From assembly GCF_003018235.1 (NCBI RefSeq), contig NZ_CP027437.1: a stretch of DNA of 64,000 nt; one strand, 5' to 3'. This document shows positions 1,118 through 52,167 of the stretch, one piece after another. Both the position numbers and the translations under genes were made by a program. Source of the stretch: Escherichia coli. Lineage in GTDB: Bacteria; Pseudomonadota; Gammaproteobacteria; Enterobacterales; Enterobacteriaceae. Each line of letters opens with the position of its first letter. Position 1 is the first letter of the stretch. The notes under the pieces were generated by a model. The model made no database searches and was not told the DNA's origin. It worked only from the letters and a program-made list of their open reading frames with translations.

Positions 1118-3355
1118 GTGGACTGGCTTCTTGATGTTTTTGCTACCTGGCTCTACGGCTTAAAAGTAATCGCGATAACGTTAGCGGTCATCATGTTCAT
1201 CAGCGGGCTGGACGATTTTTTTATTGATGTCGTCTACTGGGTACGCCGCATTAAACGCAAGTTGAGTGTTTATCGCCGCTACCCGCGAATGAGTTACCGC
1301 GAACTGTATAAACCAGATGAAAAACCGTTAGCGATTATGGTTCCGGCGTGGAATGAAACGGGCGTCATCGGCAATATGGCCGAGCTGGCGGCGACCACGC
1401 TCGACTATGAAAACTATCATATCTTTGTTGGCACCTACCCCAACGACCCCGATACTCAGCGTGATGTTGACGAAGTGTGCGCTCGCTTCCCAAACGTGCA
1501 TAAGGTAGTCTGCGCGCGTCCTGGCCCCACCAGCAAAGCCGACTGCCTGAACAACGTGCTGGACGCCATCACCCAGTTTGAGCGTAGCGCCAATTTCGCA
1601 TTTGCTGGTTTTATTCTGCATGACGCCGAAGATGTGATTTCACCGATGGAATTGCGTCTGTTCAACTATCTGGTCGAGCGTAAAGATCTGATTCAGATCC
1701 CGGTGTACCCATTCGAACGCGAATGGACGCACTTCACCAGCATGACTTACATTGATGAGTTTTCAGAACTGCATGGCAAAGATGTTCCGGTGCGTGAAGC
1801 CCTCGCCGGACAGGTGCCCAGCGCAGGCGTCGGCACCTGTTTCAGCCGCCGCGCCGTGACCGCACTGTTAGCTGACGGTGACGGTATTGCTTTCGACGTG
1901 CAGAGTCTTACTGAAGATTACGACATTGGTTTCCGCCTGAAAGAAAAAGGTATGACGGAAATTTTTGTCCGTTTTCCGGTGGTGGACGAAGCCAAAGAAC
2001 GCGAGCAGCGTAAATTTTTACAGCACGCGCGGACGTCAAACATGATCTGCGTGCGCGAATATTTCCCCGATACCTTTTCGACTGCGGTTCGACAAAAATC
2101 TCGCTGGATCATCGGCATTGTTTTCCAGGGCTTTAAAACCCACAAATGGACCTCCAGCCTGACGCTGAACTACTTTCTCTGGCGCGACCGCAAAGGGGCA
2201 ATCAGTAACTTTGTCAGCTTCCTCGCGATGCTGGTGATGATCCAGCTTTTGCTGTTGCTGGCGTATGAAAGTTTGTGGCCCGATGCCTGGCATTTCCTTT
2301 CTATTTTCAGCGGCAGCGCATGGTTAATGACTCTGCTGTGGCTAAACTTTGGCTTGATGATTAACCGCATCGTGCAGCGGGTGATTTTCGTTACTGGCTA
2401 CTACGGCCTGACGCAGGGGCTGCTATCTGTCCTGCGTCTTTTCTGGGGCAACCTGATTAACTTCATGGCCAACTGGCGCGCGTTAAAACAGGTACTTCAA
2501 CACGGCGATCCACGTCGTGTCGCGTGGGATAAAACAACGCATGACTTCCCCAGCGTGACTGGCGATACCCGCTCGTTGCGTCCGTTAGGTCAAATCCTGC
2601 TGGAAAATCAGGTCATCACTGAAGAACAACTCGATACAGCACTGCGTAATCGCGTCGAAGGTCTACGCCTGGGCGGTTCAATGCTGATGCAGGGGCTGAT
2701 TAGCGCCGAACAGCTGGCACAGGCGCTGGCAGAGCAAAACGGCGTGGCGTGGGAGTCGATCGACGCCTGGCAGATCCCTTCATCACTGATTGCCGAAATG
2801 CCGGCCTCCGTGGCGCTGCATTATGCAGTACTGCCGCTGCGTCTGGAAAATGATGAGTTAATTGTCGGCAGTGAAGATGGTATTGACCCGGTTTCGCTGG
2901 CGGCCCTGACGCGTAAAGTCGGACGCAAAGTGCGTTACGTCATTGTTCTGCGGGGACAAATTGTCACGGGGTTACGCCACTGGTATGCGCGCCGACGCGG
3001 TCACGATCCGCGGGCAATGTTGTACAATGCGGTTCAGCATCAGTGGCTCACGGAACAGCAGGCCGGTGAAATCTGGCGGCAATATGTGCCGCATCAGTTC
3101 CTGTTCGCCGAAATACTGACCACGCTCGGTCATATTAATCGTTCAGCAATTAACGTGTTGTTATTGCGCCATGAACGCAGTTCTCTGCCGCTCGGCAAGT
3201 TTTTGGTCACCGAAGGCGTTATCAGCCAGGAAACGTTGGATCGCGTCCTGACAATTCAACGCGAATTACAAGTTTCGATGCAATCACTATTACTCAAAGC
3301 AGGTTTAAACACAGAACAGGTTGCGCAACTGGAGTCCGAAAATGAAGGAGAATAA
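1118..3355 (+). CDS. nfrB: Bacteriophage N4 adsorption protein B, inner-membrane glycosyltransferase-like (745 aa, GTG start)
   Basis: 745-aa ORF with N-terminal TM segment; size and sequence match K-12 NfrB; conserved position next to cusS and nfrA. Confidence 0.88.
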   Translation: MDWLLDVFATWLYGLKVIAITLAVIMFISGLDDFFIDVVYWVRRIKRKLSVYRRYPRMSYRELYKPDEKPLAIMVPAWNETGVIGNMAELAATTLDYENYHIFVGTYPNDPDTQRDVDEVCARFPNVHKVVCARPGPTSKADCLNNVLDAITQFERSANFAFAGFILHDAEDVISPMELRLFNYLVERKDLIQIPVYPFEREWTHFTSMTYIDEFSELHGKDVPVREALAGQVPSAGVGTCFSRRAVTALLADGDGIAFDVQSLTEDYDIGFRLKEKGMTEIFVRFPVVDEAKEREQRKFLQHARTSNMICVREYFPDTFSTAVRQKSRWIIGIVFQGFKTHKWTSSLTLNYFLWRDRKGAISNFVSFLAMLVMIQLLLLLAYESLWPDAWHFLSIFSGSAWLMTLLWLNFGLMINRIVQRVIFVTGYYGLTQGLLSVLRLFWGNLINFMANWRALKQVLQHGDPRRVAWDKTTHDFPSVTGDTRSLRPLGQILLENQVITEEQLDTALRNRVEGLRLGGSMLMQGLISAEQLAQALAEQNGVAWESIDAWQIPSSLIAEMPASVALHYAVLPLRLENDELIVGSEDGIDPVSLAALTRKVGRKVRYVIVLRGQIVTGLRHWYARRRGHDPRAMLYNAVQHQWLTEQQAGEIWRQYVPHQFLFAEILTTLGHINRSAINVLLLRHERSSLPLGKFLVTEGVISQETLDRVLTIQRELQVSMQSLLLKAGLNTEQVAQLESENEGE

Positions 3356-6314
3356 CCTTAATCGCGTCATCGGATGGTCTGGTTTACTGCTGACGTCTTT
3401 ATTGAGTACCAGCGCACTCGCAGACAATATCGGCACCAGCGCAGAAGAGCTGGGGCTGAGCGATTATCGCCATTTTGTTATTTATCCCCGTCTCGACAAG
3501 GCGCTGAAGGTACAGAAAAATAACGACGAAGCAACCGCCATCCGCGAATTTGAATATATACACCAGCAGGTGCCGGATAATATTCCGCTAACTTTATACC
3601 TTGCGGAAGCCTATCGCCATTTTGGTCATGATGACCGGGCGCGGCTGTTGCTTGAGGATCAACTGAAACGTCACCCAGGAGATGCCCGACTTGAGCGCAG
3701 TCTGGCGGCTATTCCAGTTGAAGTGAAAAGCGTTACGACTGTTGAAGAACTGCTTGCCCAGCAAAAAGCGTGCGATGCTGCGCCGACCCTGCGTTGTCGC
3801 AGTGAAGTTGGGCAGAATGCCCTGCGGCTGGCACAATTACCTGTCGCCAGAGCGCAACTGAACGATGCGACGTTTGCTGCATCGCCGGAAGGAAAAACGC
3901 TGCGAACCGATCTGCTGCAACGGGCAATCTACCTGAAGCAATGGTCCCAGGCAGATACGCTATACAATGAAGCACGCCAGCAGAACACATTAAGCGCGGC
4001 AGAACGCCGCCAGTGGTTTGATGTGCTTCTTGCCGGGCAGCTGGACGATCGGATCCTGGCGCTGCAATCACAGGGGATCTTCACCGATCCGCAGTCATAT
4101 ATTACTTACGCGACCGCGCTGGCTTATCGTGACGAAAAAGCACGCCTCCAGCGTTATCTCATTGAAAATACTCCGCTATTTACCACGGACGCACAAGAGA
4201 AAAGTTGGCTCTATCTGTTATCTAAATACAGCGGCAACCCCGTTCAGGCGTTGGCGAATTATACGGTACAGTTTGCCGACAACCGCCAGTATGTTGTTGG
4301 CGCGACGCTACCGGTGCTGTTAAAAGAAGGTCAGTACGACGCAGCGCAAAAACTGCTCGCCACCCTCCCCGCCAATGAAATGCTTGAGGAGCGTTATACC
4401 GTTAGCGTAGCGACCCATAACAAGGCTGAAGCTCTGCGTCTGGCACGATTGCTGTATCAGCAAGAACCGGCAAATCTTACCCGCCTGGATCAACTGACCT
4501 GGCAACTGATGCAGAACGAGCAGTCACGCGAAGCTGCCGATTTATTGCTGCAACGCTATCCTTTCCAGGGCGATGCGCGTGTCAGCCAGACTTTAATGGC
4601 GCGACTGGCGTCTCTGCTGGAAAGTCATCCTTACCTGGCAACTCCGGCGAAGGTGGCGATTTTATCGAAACCCTTACCGCTGGCGGAGCAACGTCAGTGG
4701 CAAAGTCAGTTGCCGGGTATTGCAGATAATTGCCCGGCAATAGTTCGCTTGCTGGGCGATATGTCGCCTTCCTACGATGCCGCCGCCTGGAACCGTCTGG
4801 CAAAGTGTTATCGGGACACGCTACCCGGTGTGGCGTTGTATGCATGGCTTCAGGCCGAACAACGACAACCGAACGCCTGGCAACATCGTGCGGTAGCCTA
4901 TCAGGCGTATCAGGTTGAGGACTACGCCACCGCACTGGCGGCCTGGCAGAAAATCAGTCTTCACGACATGAGCAATGAGGATCTGCTTGCTGCTGCCAAT
5001 ACCGCCCAGGCGGCAGGAAATGGTGCGGCTCGCGATCGCTGGCTTCAGCAGGCAGAACAACGTGGGCTGGGAAACAATGCCCTCTACTGGTGGCTGCATG
5101 CGCAACGTTACATTCCTGGTCAGCCGGAACTCGCACTGAACGATCTCACGCGCTCAATCAATATTGCGCCTTCTGCCAACGCTTACGTTGCGCGGGCGAC
5201 AATTTATCGCCAACGTCATAATGTCCCGGCGGCGGTGAGTGATTTGCGCGCCGCGCTGGAACTGGAACCGAATAATAGCAACACCCAGGCAGCGCTCGGT
5301 TACGCCTTGTGGGATAGCGGTGATATCGCACAGTCGCGGGAAATGCTCGAACAGGCGCATAAAGGGCTACCGGACGATCCGGCACTTATCCGACAACTGG
5401 CCTACGTGAACCAGCGTCTGGATAACATGCCTGCGACGCAGCACTACGCCCGGCTGGTGATTGATGACATTGATAATCAGGCGCTGATAACCCCACTGAC
5501 CCCAGAGCAAAATCAGCAACGCTTCAATTTCCGCCGTCTGCATGAGGAGGTCGGTCGCCGCTGGACGTTCAGTTTCGATTCTTCCATCGGCTTGCGTTCC
5601 GGCGCAATGAGTACCGCTAACAATAATGTCGGCGGCGCAGCGCCAGGGAAAAGCTATCGTAGCTACGGGCAACTGGAAGCCGAGTACCGCATCGGACGCA
5701 ATATGCTGCTGGAAGGCGACCTGCTCTCGGTTTACAGCCGTGTATTTGCCGATACCGGAGAAAACGGGGTGATGATGCCGGTGAAAAATCCGATGTCCGG
5801 CACCGGTCTGCGCTGGAAGCCGCTACGCGATCAGATCTTTTTCCTCGCCGTCGAACAGCAGTTGCCGCTGAACGGGCAAAATGGCGCATCCGATACCATG
5901 CTGCGCGCCAGCGCCTCATTCTTTAATGGCGGCAAATACAGCGACGAATGGCACCCGAACGGTTCAGGCTGGTTTGCCCAAAACCTGTACCTCGATGCGG
6001 CGCAATATATCCGCCAGGATATTCAGGCGTGGACGGCAGATTATCGCGTCAGCTGGCATCAGAAGGTAGCTAACGGACAGACTATTGAGCCTTACGCTCA
6101 CGTTCAGGACAACGGCTATCGTGATAAAGGCACTCAGGGCGCGCAGCTTGGCGGTGTCGGGGTCCGCTGGAATATCTGGACCGGCGAGACGCACTACGAC
6201 GCCTGGCCGCACAAAGTCAGTCTCGGCGTCGAGTATCAACATACCTTTAAGGCGATTAATCAACGTAACGGAGAGCGCAACAACGCGTTTCTCACCATTG
6301 GAGTGCACTGGTAA
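3342..6314 (+). CDS. nfrA: Bacteriophage N4 adsorption protein A, outer-membrane TPR protein
   Basis: Start chosen at MKENNLNRVIGW (signal peptide follows); overlaps nfrB end as in K-12. Confidence 0.85.
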   Translation: MKENNLNRVIGWSGLLLTSLLSTSALADNIGTSAEELGLSDYRHFVIYPRLDKALKVQKNNDEATAIREFEYIHQQVPDNIPLTLYLAEAYRHFGHDDRARLLLEDQLKRHPGDARLERSLAAIPVEVKSVTTVEELLAQQKACDAAPTLRCRSEVGQNALRLAQLPVARAQLNDATFAASPEGKTLRTDLLQRAIYLKQWSQADTLYNEARQQNTLSAAERRQWFDVLLAGQLDDRILALQSQGIFTDPQSYITYATALAYRDEKARLQRYLIENTPLFTTDAQEKSWLYLLSKYSGNPVQALANYTVQFADNRQYVVGATLPVLLKEGQYDAAQKLLATLPANEMLEERYTVSVATHNKAEALRLARLLYQQEPANLTRLDQLTWQLMQNEQSREAADLLLQRYPFQGDARVSQTLMARLASLLESHPYLATPAKVAILSKPLPLAEQRQWQSQLPGIADNCPAIVRLLGDMSPSYDAAAWNRLAKCYRDTLPGVALYAWLQAEQRQPNAWQHRAVAYQAYQVEDYATALAAWQKISLHDMSNEDLLAAANTAQAAGNGAARDRWLQQAEQRGLGNNALYWWLHAQRYIPGQPELALNDLTRSINIAPSANAYVARATIYRQRHNVPAAVSDLRAALELEPNNSNTQAALGYALWDSGDIAQSREMLEQAHKGLPDDPALIRQLAYVNQRLDNMPATQHYARLVIDDIDNQALITPLTPEQNQQRFNFRRLHEEVGRRWTFSFDSSIGLRSGAMSTANNNVGGAAPGKSYRSYGQLEAEYRIGRNMLLEGDLLSVYSRVFADTGENGVMMPVKNPMSGTGLRWKPLRDQIFFLAVEQQLPLNGQNGASDTMLRASASFFNGGKYSDEWHPNGSGWFAQNLYLDAAQYIRQDIQAWTADYRVSWHQKVANGQTIEPYAHVQDNGYRDKGTQGAQLGGVGVRWNIWTGETHYDAWPHKVSLGVEYQHTFKAINQRNGERNNAFLTIGVHW

Positions 6315-18183: not shown

Positions 18184-19259
18184 AACGGGTCCTCCTGTAC
18201 TCTGGCTTTTTTCTTTTTCCGCGCGCCGGGGGCTTCGGGTTCAGGCAGATAAGCATCAGGTGGGCCGACACGGATTTCCGTCAGGGTGCCATTCTGGTCC
18301 TGAGTAAACGTGACTTCCGAGACAAGCAGTTCGGTATTGTCGAAACCACAGACCGGATCGAAGACAATCACCCGCTGGTTGGGCTGCCACAGCGTACCGT
18401 TACCCTGTCGCCAGCCCTGCACCACATAGGTGGTTTCATCCGTCCGCGCCGCCCGTTGTCGGGCTTCAAAGTCAGCACGCGCAATACAGCCTGCCCCCGT
18501 GGCCTGCCCTGTCTGCCTGATATACATCGGACGGTAACGGGCAATAAATGCGTCCTCTGTGCGGGCCCGCAGCGCGGTGGTGGTGGCCTCACCGAAATCA
18601 TCGTCGTTTCCGGCACGCTGCCCCGCCACCTGGTAAACTGAAAACCGCTCCCGGATACTCTTCTCCGTATCACAGGAAAGGATGTTTTCCCCAAGTACCA
18701 GCGCGGTATGTGCCCGCGTTGAGCCAATACCGCCAATCACCAGCCTGCCGTGCGGGTCGTCATAAGCCAGCGCCTGCTGCTGACCGAGTATTTTGTTGAT
18801 TACCTCAATCACCGTTTCACCGTGATCAGGCTGGACATCAGGAATAACACCCGACGGCGCACCGCTGTTCACCACCTCAATGCCGAAAGGCGCAGCAAGC
18901 GCCTGCGCAATCTGTACCAGCGATCGTCCGTTAAACTGTGTCGGTTCGGCTGCACAGTCAATCAGGTCAGCGGTCAGACTACGCCCAGCAATACCGGTGC
19001 TGACCGAACGGGCATCGTAACGAACGGGAGTCGCCTCCACCCAGCCGGTGATCACCAGCTCATCACCAATCAGCACCTCCACTTTTGAACCGTTTTTAAT
19101 GCGCGGCTGAAGCGTGGTGATACCCTCATCTCCCGGCCACTGGCGGGTGATCTCCACACTGAAATCCCGCGCCAGTCGTTCAACACCGGCACCGATGCGC
19201 ACCGATGTCCAGCCATTCCACTCCCGGCCATTTACCCGTAGCGTGACGTTATCGTTCAT
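18180..19259 (-). CDS. Tail/baseplate hub protein (Mu gp44 / P2 gpD-like)
   Basis: 359-aa ORF following the DNA circulation gene as in Mu. Confidence 0.6.
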   Translation of the reverse strand: MNDNVTLRVNGREWNGWTSVRIGAGVERLARDFSVEITRQWPGDEGITTLQPRIKNGSKVEVLIGDELVITGWVEATPVRYDARSVSTGIAGRSLTADLIDCAAEPTQFNGRSLVQIAQALAAPFGIEVVNSGAPSGVIPDVQPDHGETVIEVINKILGQQQALAYDDPHGRLVIGGIGSTRAHTALVLGENILSCDTEKSIRERFSVYQVAGQRAGNDDDFGEATTTALRARTEDAFIARYRPMYIRQTGQATGAGCIARADFEARQRAARTDETTYVVQGWRQGNGTLWQPNQRVIVFDPVCGFDNTELLVSEVTFTQDQNGTLTEIRVGPPDAYLPEPEAPGARKKKKARVQEDPF

Positions 19260-37543: not shown

Positions 37544-37999
37544 TTACGCCTCCTGCTTGTCGCGCAGCAGCTGGAACTCGCAGCTCTGTGGAATAGTCAG
37601 GTGGCAACCAATATTCATCGCCCAGGCTTCAACCTTACACAGGAAGACATACATCTCTCCGGTATCAAGATCGGAGGTATGGCGTAACGACTGGATAGTG
37701 GTGATATCACCGGTTACGACATCAACCAGGTCTTTGGTTTCATAACCGAGATATGTGTGTTTGAGAGCATCTTTTACCCAAGCTGGAGTGGCGAACGTTT
37801 TACCCCTGCTGATGAGGTATTCACTGATTTCGCTGTACCACATGTGGCTGAGTGCATTCTGGGAAAGACTGCGTCTCTCGCGCCACGGTTTAAGCACCAT
37901 GCGAAAGCATTTGCCGTCCTCCAGATAAGGCTGGATCTGCCGACCGATAGCGGTGAAGTTACCGCGATGCAATTTGATACCATCTTGTGGGAGGTTCAC
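37544..37999 (-). CDS. ybcN: YbcN-like nin-region protein
   Basis: 151-aa ORF matching DLP12 YbcN as recalled. Confidence 0.7.
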
Positions 38000-38191
38000 G
38001 CTTCACCTCCGCAGAGATCAAACGCTGGATGCAAAATATCGCAGGTGCATTTCTGCATCTGTGAATGGAGAAGAGAGGTTGGATTGTATGTGCGCATAAA
38101 CGTCCCCGTTTAGCGCAGAAGTCACCGGAGGAGTTCAAACTCTGGTGACTTAATTATGGCAAGTTGATTGTTGAAAATCAATTTAGTGGAT

Positions 38192-38974
38192 TTAGGCGCA
38201 ATACAAAGGATCATTAGCAGCTCTAATACCGCCCTGAATCGCAAGCCCTGTATGGCAATTTGACATTGAGCATGATTGCCATCTGTGCAAGGGACCTCCA
38301 TTAATCGAAACTTCCAGCAGATCTTTATCTCCTTTCATCCTGACCCCTTCATACAACATATCAAGACGCTCAACAATCAATCCTGTTGGAGGTTCCATTT
38401 TTAGAACGAGGGCAAACTCTCCTGGCCCACGTCGTATTGTTATACGCGGGCCGGTACACTCCACATCCCAATTGTCTGATTTAGCTTTCCATTCATTTTC
38501 ATCTATCAGTAAAGTCTCCTTACCAATAGAATTACAGAAAATTCCTGATAAAAGCATCGGTCCATGTGGTATGGGTGAAGGTTTCACAGAAAGAATGGGT
38601 TGTTCGTTGACTACAATCAAATTTTGACAGTTATGAAACGTCACTCCTGCAAATTTTACTGTTATAGGCTCATTATGAAAATCAAACATTTCATTTGCAA
38701 AACCAGCCTGTAAGCACTTGGGATTTCTGTCAGCTATTTCCACTGTCTGTGCTGAAAGTCTACCACGAGCTCTTTTTTGATTGCATTGGGAGCAAAGAAG
38801 TGTCATTCCATTCGGATCATGTACTTTGGCATCAACGAAGTCAGGTTTAAAATGCTCATAATCATAAAATCCAAATCCACAAATTACACAGCCAAAGCCG
38901 CACCTTTGCCTTATCTGACGTTTTATTGTCTCAGGTATTCTTCTTGAGAGCCCGTGTTTATTAATATTGTCCAT
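38192..38974 (-). CDS. Hypothetical protein with N-terminal HNH/His-Me-finger nuclease motif and uncharacterised C-terminal domain (260 aa)
   Basis: CGFGCVICG…YEHFKPDF…HDPNGMTLLCSQCNQKR fits the CxxC…(D/E)H…N…CxxC(N/H) HNH pattern; AT-rich gene flanked by non-coding spacers. Confidence 0.55.
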   Translation of the reverse strand: MDNINKHGLSRRIPETIKRQIRQRCGFGCVICGFGFYDYEHFKPDFVDAKVHDPNGMTLLCSQCNQKRARGRLSAQTVEIADRNPKCLQAGFANEMFDFHNEPITVKFAGVTFHNCQNLIVVNEQPILSVKPSPIPHGPMLLSGIFCNSIGKETLLIDENEWKAKSDNWDVECTGPRITIRRGPGEFALVLKMEPPTGLIVERLDMLYEGVRMKGDKDLLEVSINGGPLHRWQSCSMSNCHTGLAIQGGIRAANDPLYCA

Positions 38975-39148
38975 ATGGTTAGTACGCTATAAGTTTGTTT
39001 CTATAATTTTACCACAATAGATAAGTTTGTATCAGAAATCGCTATATGGAGTGAGCGGAATATTTATATTATTCATGCAATTGCTCTCCCGTACGCAGCC
39101 CGCACTTCCGTCATCGCAGAATGACGGAAGCCTTACTAACTAGCGCCT

Positions 39149-39472
39149 TTATTGAAACAGATTCTGAGGTAAATGCGGCAATACTCGACTCCACTTATCA
39201 TCCTGCCACGGCTGAAGTTTTACATGTGCCGTTTCTCGGACGAGGATTGCTCGCGCTCTGTTGAGTATCTGGGGATATTCTTGCTCGATGGAAGTGAAGT
39301 GACCAGCTTCACCATGCTCCGCATCCTGAAGAAGATGAGTAACGTTCTGGTAGGCAATTAACATCACATTCCCTGCTCGCCATAACCAGGCGAGTGTGCA
39401 AAGTTCGTTATCAGTGAATTGTTTTGTGATTGGGGATTGTTGAACTGCTAGAACGAGAACGCCAGCATCCAT
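39149..39472 (-). CDS. Hypothetical protein (107 aa), no recognisable motif
   Basis: ATG ORF in the AT-rich cargo region between ybcK and the HNH-like gene. Confidence 0.45.
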   Translation of the reverse strand: MDAGVLVLAVQQSPITKQFTDNELCTLAWLWRAGNVMLIAYQNVTHLLQDAEHGEAGHFTSIEQEYPQILNRARAILVRETAHVKLQPWQDDKWSRVLPHLPQNLFQ

Positions 39473-39583
39473 TGGCAGTCCCTATAGTAAAACCATAGCT
39501 CAGGACGCTTCGTTCAGGATAGATAATTTTATTGTACTTACCTAACTTTCTTACTATAGCACGGTTGAAAAAGTGATTATTAC

Positions 39584-41110
39584 TCAAAAATAAACCTCAC
39601 CATCAACCATATATTTGAGAGTACTTATCGCCTGCCGGGCGGATATTGTTTTCATTAAAGGATAGTGTTTAAAAACAATGCCATTCATAAAATAGATATC
39701 ACAGGTTTTATTATCTGTATTGATTATGATTTTTTCGAATGTTTTATAGGCAAGTGTACGACATAGCTCTCGCCCATTTTTACTGGTTAAGTCAATAGCA
39801 TGAAAATCACCAAGTGAGCTCACCGCTTTACTCTTCAAAGTTTTTAATGATACAGAAGCCCTTCGTAATTCCTTATCTAATACTCTGATTTTTTCTGCTA
39901 TAGCGGTAACTTCAGGCGCAACAGATAATGCAGCAATTAAATTATTAATTTTCATATGGAGCTCAATAATTCTCAACTCTAAAGTTTCATTAGCATCTTT
40001 CTTGTTTTCAACTGGTTGGATTTTACTACAATTAAAAAGCAACTCATTAATGATATTATAATCAACCAAATCTCTCTTTATTGATGGCCTGCCACATCGA
40101 TGCAGTCTTCTCATCGGACAAACATAATAGCCATGCAAACTTCCAGATACCGCATGAACAATCATGGTATTACCACAAGCCTCGCACTTCATAACTGTTC
40201 GAAGTAGATTTATCAACATAGGATTTTTGCTACTATTGCTAATACCAAAAGGTGCCAACCGAATTTCCTGCACAGCGTAAAACAAATCATCTGATATGAC
40301 TCTGGGATAATAGCCAGCGATTTCACTTATTCCTTTACCTCTTGCACGATATGAAGGTACGCATATACCTATCAGAGCTTTATTCGCTAATAATTTTTCA
40401 ATTACAGAAGGCCCCCATGCACTTTCTTTTCCTGAGAAATTCTTTACAGCATGATCATTTAAATACTTGGCTATTGCATTCAATGAGCGCCTTTCCATCC
40501 TGAGTTTAAAAATTAGCTCAATAGTTTTCACCCTGTCGGGGTCTGGAACAAAAGCCGTTCTTTTGTCATCTAAGGAGAGCCATCTCGGACAAGACGCCGT
40601 CATAATCGTACCTGATTCCAGTGCATCCTGCCGTTTTTTCTTCCATGATAATTTAACCCGACTTGACTTTATCTCGCTTTCTTCATTTGCCCTTTGTGCT
40701 ATAAGTATGGCTTTTATTAATGAATATGGCTCATTCAAAGAGTCAATATTATAGACTGTATTGTCGCAAAGAGTTATAACATCAATACCGTGATTCAAAA
40801 TCAATTTCAGACGTTCAATCGCTTCACCGACTTTTTCTCTTGAAAGTCTGTCCAGACTTTCAACTAACAATGTAGTTCCTGGCAATATATAACCATGCTC
40901 TATAGCATCTAAAAATTCCGAAAAAGCTCCTGATTGTGCATGCTTTCCTTTGAATGCACTTAATCCTAAATCTTCATATGTTATGGTATCAAGATAATAA
41001 TCACTATTTACCTTTAACCATTCAGCAATAAGTCTTCTCTGTCGGTTTAATGAGTCGCCAGACATCTGACCTGGTGATGAAAATCGCATATATGCTATGG
41101 CTTTTTTCAT
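39584..41110 (-). CDS. ybcK: Large serine recombinase (YbcK-like, 508 aa)
   Basis: N-terminal resolvase catalytic region (AIAYMRFSSPGQ…SLDRLSR) and C-terminal Cys-rich zinc ribbon; size equals DLP12 YbcK. Confidence 0.8.
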   Translation of the reverse strand: MKKAIAYMRFSSPGQMSGDSLNRQRRLIAEWLKVNSDYYLDTITYEDLGLSAFKGKHAQSGAFSEFLDAIEHGYILPGTTLLVESLDRLSREKVGEAIERLKLILNHGIDVITLCDNTVYNIDSLNEPYSLIKAILIAQRANEESEIKSSRVKLSWKKKRQDALESGTIMTASCPRWLSLDDKRTAFVPDPDRVKTIELIFKLRMERRSLNAIAKYLNDHAVKNFSGKESAWGPSVIEKLLANKALIGICVPSYRARGKGISEIAGYYPRVISDDLFYAVQEIRLAPFGISNSSKNPMLINLLRTVMKCEACGNTMIVHAVSGSLHGYYVCPMRRLHRCGRPSIKRDLVDYNIINELLFNCSKIQPVENKKDANETLELRIIELHMKINNLIAALSVAPEVTAIAEKIRVLDKELRRASVSLKTLKSKAVSSLGDFHAIDLTSKNGRELCRTLAYKTFEKIIINTDNKTCDIYFMNGIVFKHYPLMKTISARQAISTLKYMVDGEVYF

Positions 41111-41364
41111 GGTGACACCTGCTAACGTATGCTTTTATAAACCTTAGTGGCGAGATATAATTTTTGTTTAATTTTTATTTAAAAAGACAATTAAGGTCAC
41201 ATTATCTTGAATATACAACAATAATCGTATTGCAATTTTCTTACGCCATAATCTTGAAAGCACAAAAGAATACATAAAAAATAAAGACATTAACAAAAAG
41301 CATAAAACGAGGCTCATATAAATATAAGAGCCTCCATATTTTAGTCGTTTAGAAACAAATTATT

Positions 41365-41697
41365 TTAATGTGGTGTGCTTCGTGACAATAAATTAATAAC
41401 CAACACACCGGCACAAATCAACATCATGCCTATAATGGCTGGCAGGTCCAGCCGTTGGCCGAAAAATCCCCATGACAGTAAGCTAATCAGGACAATACCG
41501 ACTCCTGACCAGATAGCATAAGCAATCCCTGTAGGAATATAAGCCAGCGTCTGAGCTAATAACCAGAATGATGCACAATAACAAATAATTGTACCAACAG
41601 ATGGCCATAACCGTGTAAAACCTTCTGAAAACTTCATTAAGGTTGTACCAATGACCTCTGCAAGTATTGCACCACCAAGATAAATATAAGGATTCAT
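41365..41697 (-). CDS. emrE: SMR-family multidrug efflux protein EmrE
   Basis: 110-aa four-TM protein starting MNPYIYLGGAILAEVIGTTLMK; matches EmrE. Confidence 0.9.
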   Translation of the reverse strand: MNPYIYLGGAILAEVIGTTLMKFSEGFTRLWPSVGTIICYCASFWLLAQTLAYIPTGIAYAIWSGVGIVLISLLSWGFFGQRLDLPAIIGMMLICAGVLVINLLSRSTPH

Positions 41698-41764
41698 AGC
41701 ATATTCTTTCCTGTTCAAACTGGAGAGAATTGTACTACAGTTTGAACTCAACTCACCTGTTTCA

Positions 41765-44617: not shown

Positions 44618-44721
44618 AACAACCTCCGTGGTTAATTTGAATCAAGATTAAAACCATGGTTGTTTTTAGTCAACAACCATTTTCGTTTGATGAAATAAAA
44701 CCTTGGTTGTACATTTGGACT
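44618..44721. promoter_or_regulatory. Divergent immunity promoter/operator region (OR-like) with three related operator sites
   Basis: AAAACCATGGTTGTTTT (about 44650-44666), CAACAACCATTTT (about 44671-44683), AAAACCTTGGTTGTACA (about 44697-44713) share the CAACCA/TGGTTG half-site. Confidence 0.6.
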
Positions 44722-45411
44722 ATGAAAACAACACTCTCAGAAAGACTTAAAGAAGCCAGATTAGCGCGAGGCCTTACACAAAAGGCGCTTGGGGATTTGG
44801 TCGGGGTTAGCCAAGCAGCTATTCAGAAAATCGAAACAGGGAAAGCTAACCAAACAACTAAAATCGTGGAGATCGCGAACGCTTTGGGTGTGCGCGCAGA
44901 ATGGTTATCTTCTGGCGTTGGAAATATGTCAGACAGTACAGTGCAACCAATACAAACAACTGTCAGCCATTCCAAATACTTTAAGATTGACGTTCTTGAT
45001 ATCGAAGTGAGTGCCGGGCCGGGAGTCATCAACCGTGAGTTTGTAGAAGTTCTACGCTCGGTTGAGTACTCGTTTGACGATGCTCGTCACATGTTCGATG
45101 GTAGGAAGGCAGAAAATATCCGCATCATTAACGTACGCGGTGACAGCATGTCAGGAACGATTGAACCTGGTGATCTTCTATTCGTTGATATCACGGTTAA
45201 ATCTTTCGACGGTGATGGTATCTATGCGTTTCTGTACGACGACACAGCCCATGTAAAGCGCCTGCAAATGATGAAGGATAAGCTGCTGGTTATCTCTGAT
45301 AACAAAAGCTACTCACCGTGGGACCCGATCGAGAAAGATGAGATGAACCGGGTATTTATCTTCGGGAAAGTTATTGGGAGCATGCCGCAGACGTATAGGA
45401 AGCATGGATAG
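44722..45411 (+). CDS. CI-like repressor (N-terminal HTH, C-terminal LexA/S24 autopeptidase domain)
   Basis: HTH (LTQKALGDLVGVSQAAIQKIETG) and S24 catalytic region (GDSMSG…, …HVKRL); start at MKTTLSERL chosen over the upstream in-frame TTG/ATG. Confidence 0.85.
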   Translation: MKTTLSERLKEARLARGLTQKALGDLVGVSQAAIQKIETGKANQTTKIVEIANALGVRAEWLSSGVGNMSDSTVQPIQTTVSHSKYFKIDVLDIEVSAGPGVINREFVEVLRSVEYSFDDARHMFDGRKAENIRIINVRGDSMSGTIEPGDLLFVDITVKSFDGDGIYAFLYDDTAHVKRLQMMKDKLLVISDNKSYSPWDPIEKDEMNRVFIFGKVIGSMPQTYRKHG

Positions 45412-45479: not shown

Positions 45480-46553
45480 ATGGAGAACTTAATGGATACT
45501 TTAAAATATGAGAAATTCTCTGATTTTGATCACAATGACCCATTTTTTGACTCTTTAAAAAAAGATTATAAAGAGTTTCCTCTTTGGTTAGAAAAAAAAG
45601 CCAGAGAAGGAGAATCAGCTTATGTGCTCTATGATGACAAGCATAAAATCGAAGGTTTTATGTATCTAAAAGAAAATGATGATGCAAATGACATTAATCC
45701 AGCGCTCCCACCAGGACGTCATCTAAAGATAGGAACATTCAAATTTGAATCTAAAGGCACCCTTCGCGGACAACGATTTCTAAAAAAAGCGTTTGACCAT
45801 GCATTTTCATCAAAATCTGATGATATTTATGTTACTGTTTTCGACAAACACGTCCATCTAATAAAACTTTTCCAAACGTACGGATTTTACATTCATGGTG
45901 AAAAAGAAACACATAACGGGAAAGAGTTTGTATATGCGAGGTCTTTGCATGAGCCTTATGGTGATATTTTATTAGATTACCCTCGAATAATGACATCAAG
46001 GGCCAACAAATATTTACTGGCGATTTATCCCGAATATCACACTAGACTATTCCCTGATTCAAAACTTGTAAATGAATCACCAGATATTGTCAAAGATATA
46101 TCCCATGCTAACAGCATTCATAAAATTTACATATGTGGAATGCGTTCTGTGATGGGAATGAAAAGAGGAGATATCATTGTCATCTATAGAACCGGAGACA
46201 AAAAAGGGCCAGCTCGCTATCGTTCTGTAGCCAGTACATTATGTGTAGTTGAGAGCGTAAAAAATATTTCTGAATTTTTAAGCGAAGATAGTTTTGTAGA
46301 CTATTGTATTCGTTTTAGCGTATTTTCTGAAGATGAACTCAGAAAAATCTATAAAGAACGTCGATACCCTTTCATTATAAGATTCACATACAATCTGTCT
46401 TTGCCAAAGAGACCCAATCGTGCTATTTTAATAGATCATGTGGGGCTAAATGGTTCGCGTGCATTCCGATGGAGTCACTTTAAACTCACAAATGAGCAGT
46501 TCTTAAAGATCATCGAGTTAGGCAAGATAAATGAAAGTTTTATTATCCATTAA
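45480..46553 (+). CDS. Hypothetical two-domain protein: N-terminal GNAT-like acyltransferase fold, C-terminal PUA/ASCH/EVE-like domain (357 aa)
   Basis: Pattern resembling GNAT motifs (…IGTFKFESKGTLRGQRFLKKAFDHAF…LIKLFQTYGFYIHG…); C-terminal half has a KRGDIIVIYRTGD segment reminiscent of PUA-like beta barrels; strongly AT-rich. Confidence 0.5.
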   Translation: MENLMDTLKYEKFSDFDHNDPFFDSLKKDYKEFPLWLEKKAREGESAYVLYDDKHKIEGFMYLKENDDANDINPALPPGRHLKIGTFKFESKGTLRGQRFLKKAFDHAFSSKSDDIYVTVFDKHVHLIKLFQTYGFYIHGEKETHNGKEFVYARSLHEPYGDILLDYPRIMTSRANKYLLAIYPEYHTRLFPDSKLVNESPDIVKDISHANSIHKIYICGMRSVMGMKRGDIIVIYRTGDKKGPARYRSVASTLCVVESVKNISEFLSEDSFVDYCIRFSVFSEDELRKIYKERRYPFIIRFTYNLSLPKRPNRAILIDHVGLNGSRAFRWSHFKLTNEQFLKIIELGKINESFIIH

Positions 46554-46908
46554 GCCTGAGTTTGCAGAAAAAATATTGAACGGAACAAAGCGGTTCGAGT
46601 TTCGTAAAGGTATATTCAAAAATCCGCAAATTAGCACCGTTGTTATTTATGCCACGATGCCATTAGGTAAAGTTGTTGGTCAATTCCGTATTGAATCAAT
46701 ACTAAGTGACGAACCGGAATCTCTTTGGAAAAAGACGGAAAAACACGCAGGTATTTCTAAGCAATTTTATGACTCATATTATTCAGGTAGAGAAAAGGCC
46801 TACGCAATAAAAATTGGTGAAGTGGAAAGATATAAAGAACCAATTCCTATCTCTGCTCTAGGTAGTAATATTAAGCCACCACAATCATATCTTTACCTAC
46901 CTGCGTAA
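46531..46908 (+). CDS. ASCH-domain protein (125 aa)
   Basis: MKVLLSIKPEFAEKILNGTKRFEFRK… is the characteristic ASCH N-terminal beta strand/helix signature; overlaps the preceding gene by 23 nt. Confidence 0.6.
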   Translation: MKVLLSIKPEFAEKILNGTKRFEFRKGIFKNPQISTVVIYATMPLGKVVGQFRIESILSDEPESLWKKTEKHAGISKQFYDSYYSGREKAYAIKIGEVERYKEPIPISALGSNIKPPQSYLYLPA

Positions 46909-52090: not shown

Positions 52091-52167
52091 TGGCGCGCCC
52101 TGCAGGATTCGAACCTGCGGCCCACGACTTAGAAGGTCGTTGCTCTATCCAACTGAGCTAAGGGCGC
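52091..52167 (-). tRNA. argU: tRNA-Arg (anticodon UCU)
   Basis: Reverse complement reads GCGCCCTTAGCTCAGTTGGATAGAGCAACGACCTTCTAAGTCGTGGGCCGCAGGTTCGAATCCTGCAGGGCGCGCCA: cloverleaf with TCT anticodon and CCA end. Confidence 0.93.

Follow-up and report, generated by a model that had tools for sequence, protein, structure and literature searches.

Prophage hotspots and nuclease-plus-sensor defence proteins are already known as kinds, and several described systems offer comparisons for the gene considered here, which encodes a 260-amino-acid (aa) protein with an N-terminal HNH domain. The gene lies in a 64,000-nucleotide stretch of Escherichia coli DNA (contig NZ_CP027437.1, assembly GCF_003018235.1; hereafter the window), in an exchangeable cassette of a lambdoid prophage that resembles DLP12 and sits at argU. 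The closest comparison is with BstA (Owen et al. 2021), an experimentally validated prophage abortive-infection protein (PMC8585504). In the sister E. coli prophages L003 and L016 (L-numbers are our locus labels), BstA occupies the exact slot of the nuclease gene, with the same junctions, and each is a prophage-borne single gene of patchy distribution with its own upstream region; however, the two proteins have no sequence or domain relation, the N-terminal domain of BstA being KilA-N-like and DNA-binding, with no HNH. Nothing resembling the aba self-immunity element was found here, no search being aimed at one. The P2 gpA–portal and P2/P4 hotspots (Rousset 2022; Vassallo 2022) likewise place interchangeable anti-phage cargo between conserved phage flanks, and one homologue of the 260-aa protein lies in the P2 slot, whereas the slot in the window belongs to a lambdoid prophage and extends from an antirepressor-like gene to ninB.

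Other described HNH proteins differ in architecture or in their partners. CBASS Cap5 joins HNH to SAVED, whereas the C-terminal domain of the 260-aa protein has no SAVED match and no recurrent neighbouring gene could fill the CD-NTase role. Compared with the Type IV HNH enzymes EcoKMcrA, TagI, ScoMcrA and VcaM4I, the domain order is reversed, the HNH being N-terminal, and the second domain belongs to no known type of reader, SRA and EVE included. Septu PtuB and the retron-associated TIGR02646 HNH proteins work with a PtuA ATPase or a retron partner, whereas the cassette has no ATPase gene and no partner, and its match to PtuB reaches only E 0.031. We give a little better than an even chance to the reading that the 260-aa protein acts alone as a prophage nuclease for defence or exclusion, and leave part of the probability unassigned among the alternatives considered below. 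Two things are new: a family that is widespread, uncharacterised and unsolved in its C-terminal fold, and a slot in lambdoid prophages that no paper we found calls a defence hotspot; in a literature search of incomplete coverage, nothing specific was found on lambdoid ninB hotspots, single-gene HNH defences or ybcK/ybcL/ybcM.

An exchange slot with interchangeable cargo

The slot between the antirepressor-like gene and ylcH–ybcN is a real exchange hotspot. An earlier note on this DNA had reported two open reading frames (ORFs) between ybcK and ybcN, where it placed ybcL and ybcM in K-12, and had proposed a variable accessory hotspot. Both ORFs are present, the K-12 placement is correct (the order in K-12 and B-type strains is emrE-ylcJ-ybcK-ybcL-ybcM-ylcH-ybcN), and alignment across DLP12-like prophages confirms a variable slot with conserved flanks, one fixed junction and unrelated cargos that include BstA. 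A near-identical gene arrangement is annotated in strain 1517k. The features of the slot in the window are as follows.

37544–37999, minus strand: ybcN (NinB/Orf family; NF007281, E 1.5e-83; phrog_72), the right conserved flank
37996–38097, minus strand: ylcH-like 33-aa ORF, on the right side of the slot
38020–38181: conserved linker that sets the fixed right boundary of the slot, comprising most of the ylcH-like ORF and a hairpin at 38119–38151; 91–95% identity in all variants
38182–39097: minimal exchanged segment (the cassette) by BLAST junctions, comprising the nuclease ORF with 123 bp upstream and 10 bp downstream
38192–38974, minus strand: 260-aa ORF (ORF list), an HNH and all-beta-domain protein of WP_001348590 type, phrog_6544
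38975–39097, minus strand: cassette-specific 5' region, unique to the nuclease cassette relative to L017, L018 and L020
39035–39006, minus strand: promoter-like site of sigma-70 type with extended -10 (CTGATA-18-TAAAAT preceded by TG), 32 nt upstream of the ATG
39105–39130: perfect 10-bp hairpin just 3' of the 107-aa ORF, outside the minimal cassette and common to L017, L018 and L020
39149–39472, minus strand: 107-aa ORF (ORF list), the P22AR_C half of an antirepressor-like gene, 5'-truncated and outside the nuclease module
39584–41110, minus strand: ybcK, large serine recombinase, the left conserved flank and part of the AT-rich emrE-ylcJ-ybcK module (36.3% GC)

Junctions were mapped by BLAST of the window against ten other E. 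coli prophage variants. The right, ybcN-side junction falls at 38181/38182 in 10 of 10 comparisons, 10 bp beyond the stop codon of the 260-aa gene. The left junction lies at 39098 in L017, L018 and L020, at 39156 in L003 and L016, at 39169 in L004, L019 and L021, and at 39545 in K-12, which is without the antirepressor fragment. Because the right junction is fixed and homology on the left resumes no nearer than 39098, the minimal exchanged segment is set at 38182–39097. In L004, L020 and L021 the linker (38020–38157) is repeated upstream of the full-length antirepressor gene; this duplication fits module exchange via recombination at shared linker sequences, and the ylcH-containing linker is a likely recombination substrate. 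The second copies are at 5843–5980 (L004), 3616–3713 (L020) and 3609–3746 (L021), and the two copies bracket a unit of antirepressor plus cargo. The linker occupies the position of lambda tR2, and its hairpin at 38119–38151 has no following T-run.

Eight alternative contents of the slot were found, one of which, BstA, has a proven defence function. The BstA cargo, in L003 and L016, is a 309-aa protein recognised by PADLOC (E 3.6e-121) and by phrog_6287, 'BstA abortive infection system'; the genes are at 2197–3126 and 1465–2394, respectively, and their RefSeq label in E. coli is merely 'hypothetical protein'. L017 (1856–2362), L018 (1857–2366) and L020 (1856–2365) carry a 168/169-aa protein of phrog_1779, and L019 (1763–2119) a 118-aa protein of phrog_12412, both of unknown function; neither matches a defence model, and by their position both are candidate defence genes. 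A HEPN protein with a 133-aa companion, weakly matching PDC-M28A, is found in O157:H7 and O26-type prophages, and ybcL-ybcM in K-12/B-type strains; an alpha/beta hydrolase gene on the opposite strand is another cargo, and O157:H7 strain 8368 probably has an empty slot, its interval being shorter. Among 5426 complete E. coli genomes, the nuclease cassette occurs in 81, every copy being at least 99% identical, the BstA cassette in 104–121 and the HEPN pair in 190; about 4200 E. coli genomes have this prophage region, and 81 of them carry the 260-aa gene. That the contents vary among K-12, O157:H7, O26, enterotoxigenic E. coli E24377A and Shiga-toxin-producing E. coli O91 bears on E. coli annotation. 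On the far side of the full-length antirepressor gene, L020 (strain SCU-313) carries a DUF4041-domain gene at 4126–5511. DUF4041 is perhaps the domain found in a membrane-bound nuclease defence reportedly described in a 2025 preprint.

No LexA box, as would be expected if the antirepressor remnant or the cassette were controlled as in Gifsy prophages, was found within 38975–39583, and an Rfam scan of the spacers gave no match at E<=0.1. Across 66 distinct viral contexts of family members, the upstream gap has a median of about 120 bp; by crude ORF calling, 9 contexts have both neighbours on the opposite strand, 30 have both on the same strand, and 26 are mixed.

The 260-aa protein and its relatives

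The earlier note had read the protein as an N-terminal HNH domain followed by an unrecognised C-terminal domain, and the AlphaFold2 (AF2) model, Foldseek and structure comparison all bear this out. In the model (pLDDT 92.7), the N-terminal domain has the beta-beta-alpha-metal fold and packs against a 170-residue all-beta domain.

38771–38902, minus strand: HNH (beta-beta-alpha-metal) core, residues ~25–68, with C25, C29-x2-C32, E40-H41, H52, C61-x2-C64 and N65
38225–38707, minus strand: C-terminal all-beta domain, residues ~90–250, with invariant N160, W169 and D170

An alignment of 40 homologues shows no variation at C25, C29, C32, E40, H41, H52, C61 and N65, and almost none at C64. The predicted catalytic set thus looks complete, with E40 and N65 as putative metal ligands, H41 as the putative general base, and a CxxC...CxxC zinc knuckle; longer relatives have His at position 65, as in the canonical ending of the HNH motif. 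The all-beta domain has no match to any solved structure, and a family-profile sequence search of the PDB returned only a chance match to gp160. The protein matches phrog_6544 at E 1.8e-141 (unknown function), HNH PHROGs only weakly (best 4.8e-4), and Pfam HNH (PF01844) at a weak independent E-value of 0.05. The same Pfam model reaches 1e-3 in 0 of 40 close homologues and 0.1 in 9 of 40, and among long homologues 2 of 29 reach 1e-3 (best 2.4e-5). NCBIfam has no family for the protein, and no paper naming WP_001348590 or its family was found in the literature covered, which was incomplete.

The family is large. It includes 305 full-length homologues of 247–265 aa in gamma- and beta-proteobacteria at 50–79% identity, and an exhaustive profile search recovered 2666 cluster representatives at 50% identity, 810 of them at E<=1e-30 and many with C-terminal extensions. 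Foldseek against AFDB50 returned 253 whole-length matches (TM ~0.9), including proteins of Bacteroidota, Cyanobacteria and Bacillus, every one uncharacterised and named 'HNH endonuclease' or hypothetical. Overall the family extends across Proteobacteria, Cyanobacteria, Actinobacteria, Firmicutes, Bacteroidota and Planctomycetota, with one member in an archaeal metagenome-assembled genome (MAG). That member (L054, 8001–8690, on a Methanothrix MAG contig; 41% identity over residues 1–232) could be a horizontal transfer or a binning artefact. Among longer members (300–450 aa; alignment A3, including P0145), 9 of 29 have a C-terminal SEC-C zinc-binding motif and one carries tetratricopeptide repeats, and AFDB also holds family fusions annotated as peptidyl-prolyl isomerase.

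The 260-aa gene is under strong purifying selection, as relative to Enterobacter pN is 0.16 and pS 0.82, the latter being saturated, hence the use of pN/pS rather than dN/dS. Separately, L031, a sister prophage with the same cassette, has its own packaging-type HNH endonuclease of 116 aa (18639–18989) beside the small terminase subunit; therefore, the 260-aa protein is not the packaging HNH.

Prophage contexts and the defence reading

The nuclease gene travels alone, with no conserved partner: in 79 loci from diverse species, with three ORFs inspected on each side, no neighbour family occurs in more than three. Close relatives, here defined as those of at least 50% identity, occupy varied positions. 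In Enterobacter, the gene directly follows lambda-type O/P and precedes a RES-domain gene, and in two Klebsiella prophage types it follows O/P or DnaB in the nin region. A Pseudomonas prophage carries it antisense in the early-left region, a Burkholderia prophage at its end, and a filamentous prophage between integrase and Zot, with a G2P-type replication protein present. One relative adjoins AbiEi/AbiEii, and another HicAB and an insertion sequence (IS) element. In Alcaligenes faecalis (L012, 6001–6795 and 6983–7720), the relative is followed by a 245-aa protein with a weak Pfam HNH match and then by a DUF4238 gene; the second HNH-like gene may be a tandem paralogue within a small defence cluster. 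In a P2-like prophage of Buttiauxella, gpA (phrog_91, Pfam Phage_GPA) and the portal gene (phrog_68) flank a homologue of 62% identity, at a position known as a defence hotspot with tin, old and four new systems (Vassallo et al., PMC9519451). Relatives are found in only 1 of 50,697 GenBank phage records, whereas IMG/VR has 101 contigs with relatives, most of which are probably prophages, their identifiers indicating isolate genomes; together these counts point to a lysogeny-associated rather than a lytic-cycle gene. Plasmids carry relatives in 7 of 72,556 records, every one below 45% identity.

Seen here are the protein's fold and conserved residues, a gene that stands alone, the hotspot and the settings in mobile elements; expression in the lysogen, nuclease activity, a sensing role for the beta domain and an anti-phage outcome are inferred. 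The strong purifying selection, the low GC content, the promoter-like site and the upstream gap of about 120 bp also speak for a defence or exclusion nuclease. An autonomous, lysogeny-associated function is favoured over a lambda-specific role in DNA metabolism or homing because the gene alternates with BstA at identical junctions, because a homologue occupies the P2 gpA–portal slot, and because relatives adjoin AbiE and HicAB and occur in a filamentous prophage. Most economically, the protein is read as a moron nuclease that prophages of several unrelated kinds carry and that serves in conflicts among mobile elements. The gene would be transcribed in the lysogen from its own promoter. The beta domain would hold the nuclease inactive until a superinfecting phage, or another mobile element, provides a cue, possibly a phage protein or unusual or modified DNA, or would direct the nuclease to that DNA. 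The HNH domain would then cut DNA, with the invader restricted directly or the infected cell undergoing abortive infection. The earlier note had recognised in the nuclease-plus-unknown-domain layout a common form of anti-phage effector. The layout stands on structural grounds, and the anti-phage role is plausible by analogy with the BstA slot and the P2 gpA–portal homologue, although no PADLOC, NCBIfam or Pfam family supports it.

Several observations weigh against assigning a defence role. In a literature of incomplete coverage, no experiment and no named family supports it, and the PADLOC v2 models returned only the chance-level PtuB match. The ATG of the 260-aa gene lacks a clear or strong Shine-Dalgarno sequence upstream. 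The contexts of close relatives (P2 hotspot, AbiE, HicAB, DUF4238, BstA slot) are positive, but those of distant relatives are weak: 5 of 40 nearest neighbours match PADLOC at 1e-5, as a raw count, and these are one AbiV, the sole validated system among them, three partial candidate-model matches and one helix-turn-helix (HTH) protein. Pfam assignments for 148 nearest neighbours include two or three GmrSD_N, two AbiV, two PIN and three integrases, the rest being mostly ordinary, and a tRNA within 8 kb of 9 of 45 distant loci is about background. Finally, most copies in Enterobacteriaceae sit in the nin region beside recombination genes and point the same way as the early-right operon, a placement that is compatible with a lytic-cycle role in DNA metabolism as well.

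That role is the first alternative, in which the protein is a delayed-early nin-region nuclease that aids replication, recombination or end processing, in the manner of NinG/Rap, RusA or P1 Ref. In four enterobacterial prophage types the gene runs with the early-right operon, between the replication genes and ninB/rusA, as such an accessory would, and in viral contexts DinI, Pol III theta and methyltransferase fragments are among the neighbours. We nevertheless judge it unlikely. Relatives that are antisense in Pseudomonas, in a filamentous prophage, in the P2 gpA–portal slot or in non-prophage loci beside AbiE/HicAB do not share lambda-type recombination biology; the gene is present in only 81 of the roughly 4200 E. 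coli genomes with the prophage region, where BstA or HEPN genes are interchangeable with it; and it is nearly absent from sequenced phage genomes.

A modification-dependent, Type IV-like restriction enzyme, whose beta domain reads modified bases and whose HNH domain cuts modified phage DNA without cell death, is a sub-case within the defence reading, and one to which we assign only a small share of it. A single chain joining sensor and nuclease, unaccompanied by a methyltransferase or immunity gene, is the usual design of such enzymes (described in general terms in PMC12191111), and GmrSD_N genes occur among the neighbours; however, the domain order is the reverse of that in McrA, and the DNA of the prophage's own hosts and of typical lambdoid competitors is ordinary. 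Sequence does not decide between direct restriction of this Type IV-like kind and Cap5-like killing of the infected cell.

The weakest alternative is a free-standing HNH homing endonuclease, a selfish gene that cuts cassette-less alleles close to where it inserts and spreads by repair; the earlier note had kept it in view, and the HNH fold, the presence/absence polymorphism between conserved flanks with a junction 10 bp beyond the stop codon, and the near-identity of the E. coli copies, which suggests recent spread, are in keeping with it, but we consider it very improbable, since many unrelated cargos share the junctions, so that exchange reflects recombination at shared linkers and not the activity of the nuclease gene, the family sits at many different insertion sites with no common neighbouring target gene, the Pfam scan shows no NUMOD, IENR1, AP2 or HTH module and the C-terminal domain is all-beta, a gene conserved over its full length at 50–60% from beta- to gamma-proteobacteria, with ~40 invariant columns, does not resemble homing genes, which decay fast, and the family is nearly absent from lytic phage genomes, where homing genes abound.

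Should the 260-aa protein prove to be a defence nuclease, the catalogue gains a one-gene system whose sensor fold is unsolved, and the slot from the antirepressor-like gene to ninB becomes a mineable reservoir, with BstA, the HEPN pair, phrog_1779 and phrog_12412 already there; if it is not defensive, it is an ordinary nin-region moron. A wider proposition, to which we would give somewhat less than an even chance, is that the proteins form an unnamed, widespread family of single-protein immune nucleases, in which the all-beta domain would be a new sensor licensing the HNH domain, that lambdoid, P2-like and filamentous prophages would carry them to exclude competitors, and that the antirepressor–ninB slot would rank with the P2/P4 sites as a lambdoid defence hotspot not described before.

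The antirepressor remnant and the wider prophage

The 107-aa ORF is evidently, from its sequence, the C-terminal half of a P22-type antirepressor, cut at the emrE-ybcK module. The earlier note had found no recognisable motif in it and had taken it as a partner of the 260-aa protein; neither view survives. It matches Pfam P22_AR_C (PF10548) at E 1.5e-13 over model positions 3–73 of 73, as well as phrog_7640 and antirepressor PHROGs, and it aligns to residues 101–197 of a full-length, 202-aa protein in O157/EH2252 prophages. The N-terminal half of this relative carries antirepressor PHROG matches and has no counterpart in the 107-aa ORF. DNA homology to the full-length gene ends exactly at the ATG of the 107-aa ORF, at 39471/39472, where the AT-rich emrE-ylcJ-ybcK module starts. 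In most comparisons, with homology resuming at 39098, 39156 or 39169, the ORF lies outside the exchanged segment, and it is far commoner than the nuclease gene, being found in 668–838 genomes vs 81; the copy adjoining BstA is 98% identical. A two-gene system is rejected, the 107-aa ORF being absent beside homologues of the 260-aa protein in Klebsiella, Enterobacter and other genera and adjoining other cargos in E. coli. By small counts, dN/dS is 0.33–0.70 among truncated copies vs 0.25–0.30 against full-length genes, and one truncated copy has a premature stop; the truncated copies look to be under relaxed constraint. An annotation of 'P22AR C-terminal domain-containing protein' beside ybcK denotes a gene fragment.

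The emrE-ylcJ-ybcK module (33–41% GC; window intervals considered, 39472–39545 and 41110–41751) ends at the point of antirepressor truncation, and the prophages without it (L004, L020 and L021) have the full 202-aa gene. The YbcK serine recombinase may once have inserted the module into the antirepressor gene. The earlier note had called both ORFs AT-rich, which is true of the 260-aa gene (40.9% GC) and not of the 107-aa ORF (46.9%, vs 49.4% for the window; ybcK, 36.3%).

The host element is a DLP12-like prophage, placed at argU, as is DLP12, because tRNA-Arg(tct) lies at 52091–52167 with a tyrosine integrase adjoining; head, tail and lysis modules are complete in related prophages. Directly 3' of the cI-like S24 repressor (44656–45411), in a rexAB/BstA-type position, are two overlapping genes on the plus strand, 45480–46553 and 46531–46908, with matches to PDC-M11, a candidate system in PADLOC (M11A, E 2e-133; M11B, E 7e-52). 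The pair is missing from the related prophage L031, and its position looks like a second accessory slot of the same prophage.

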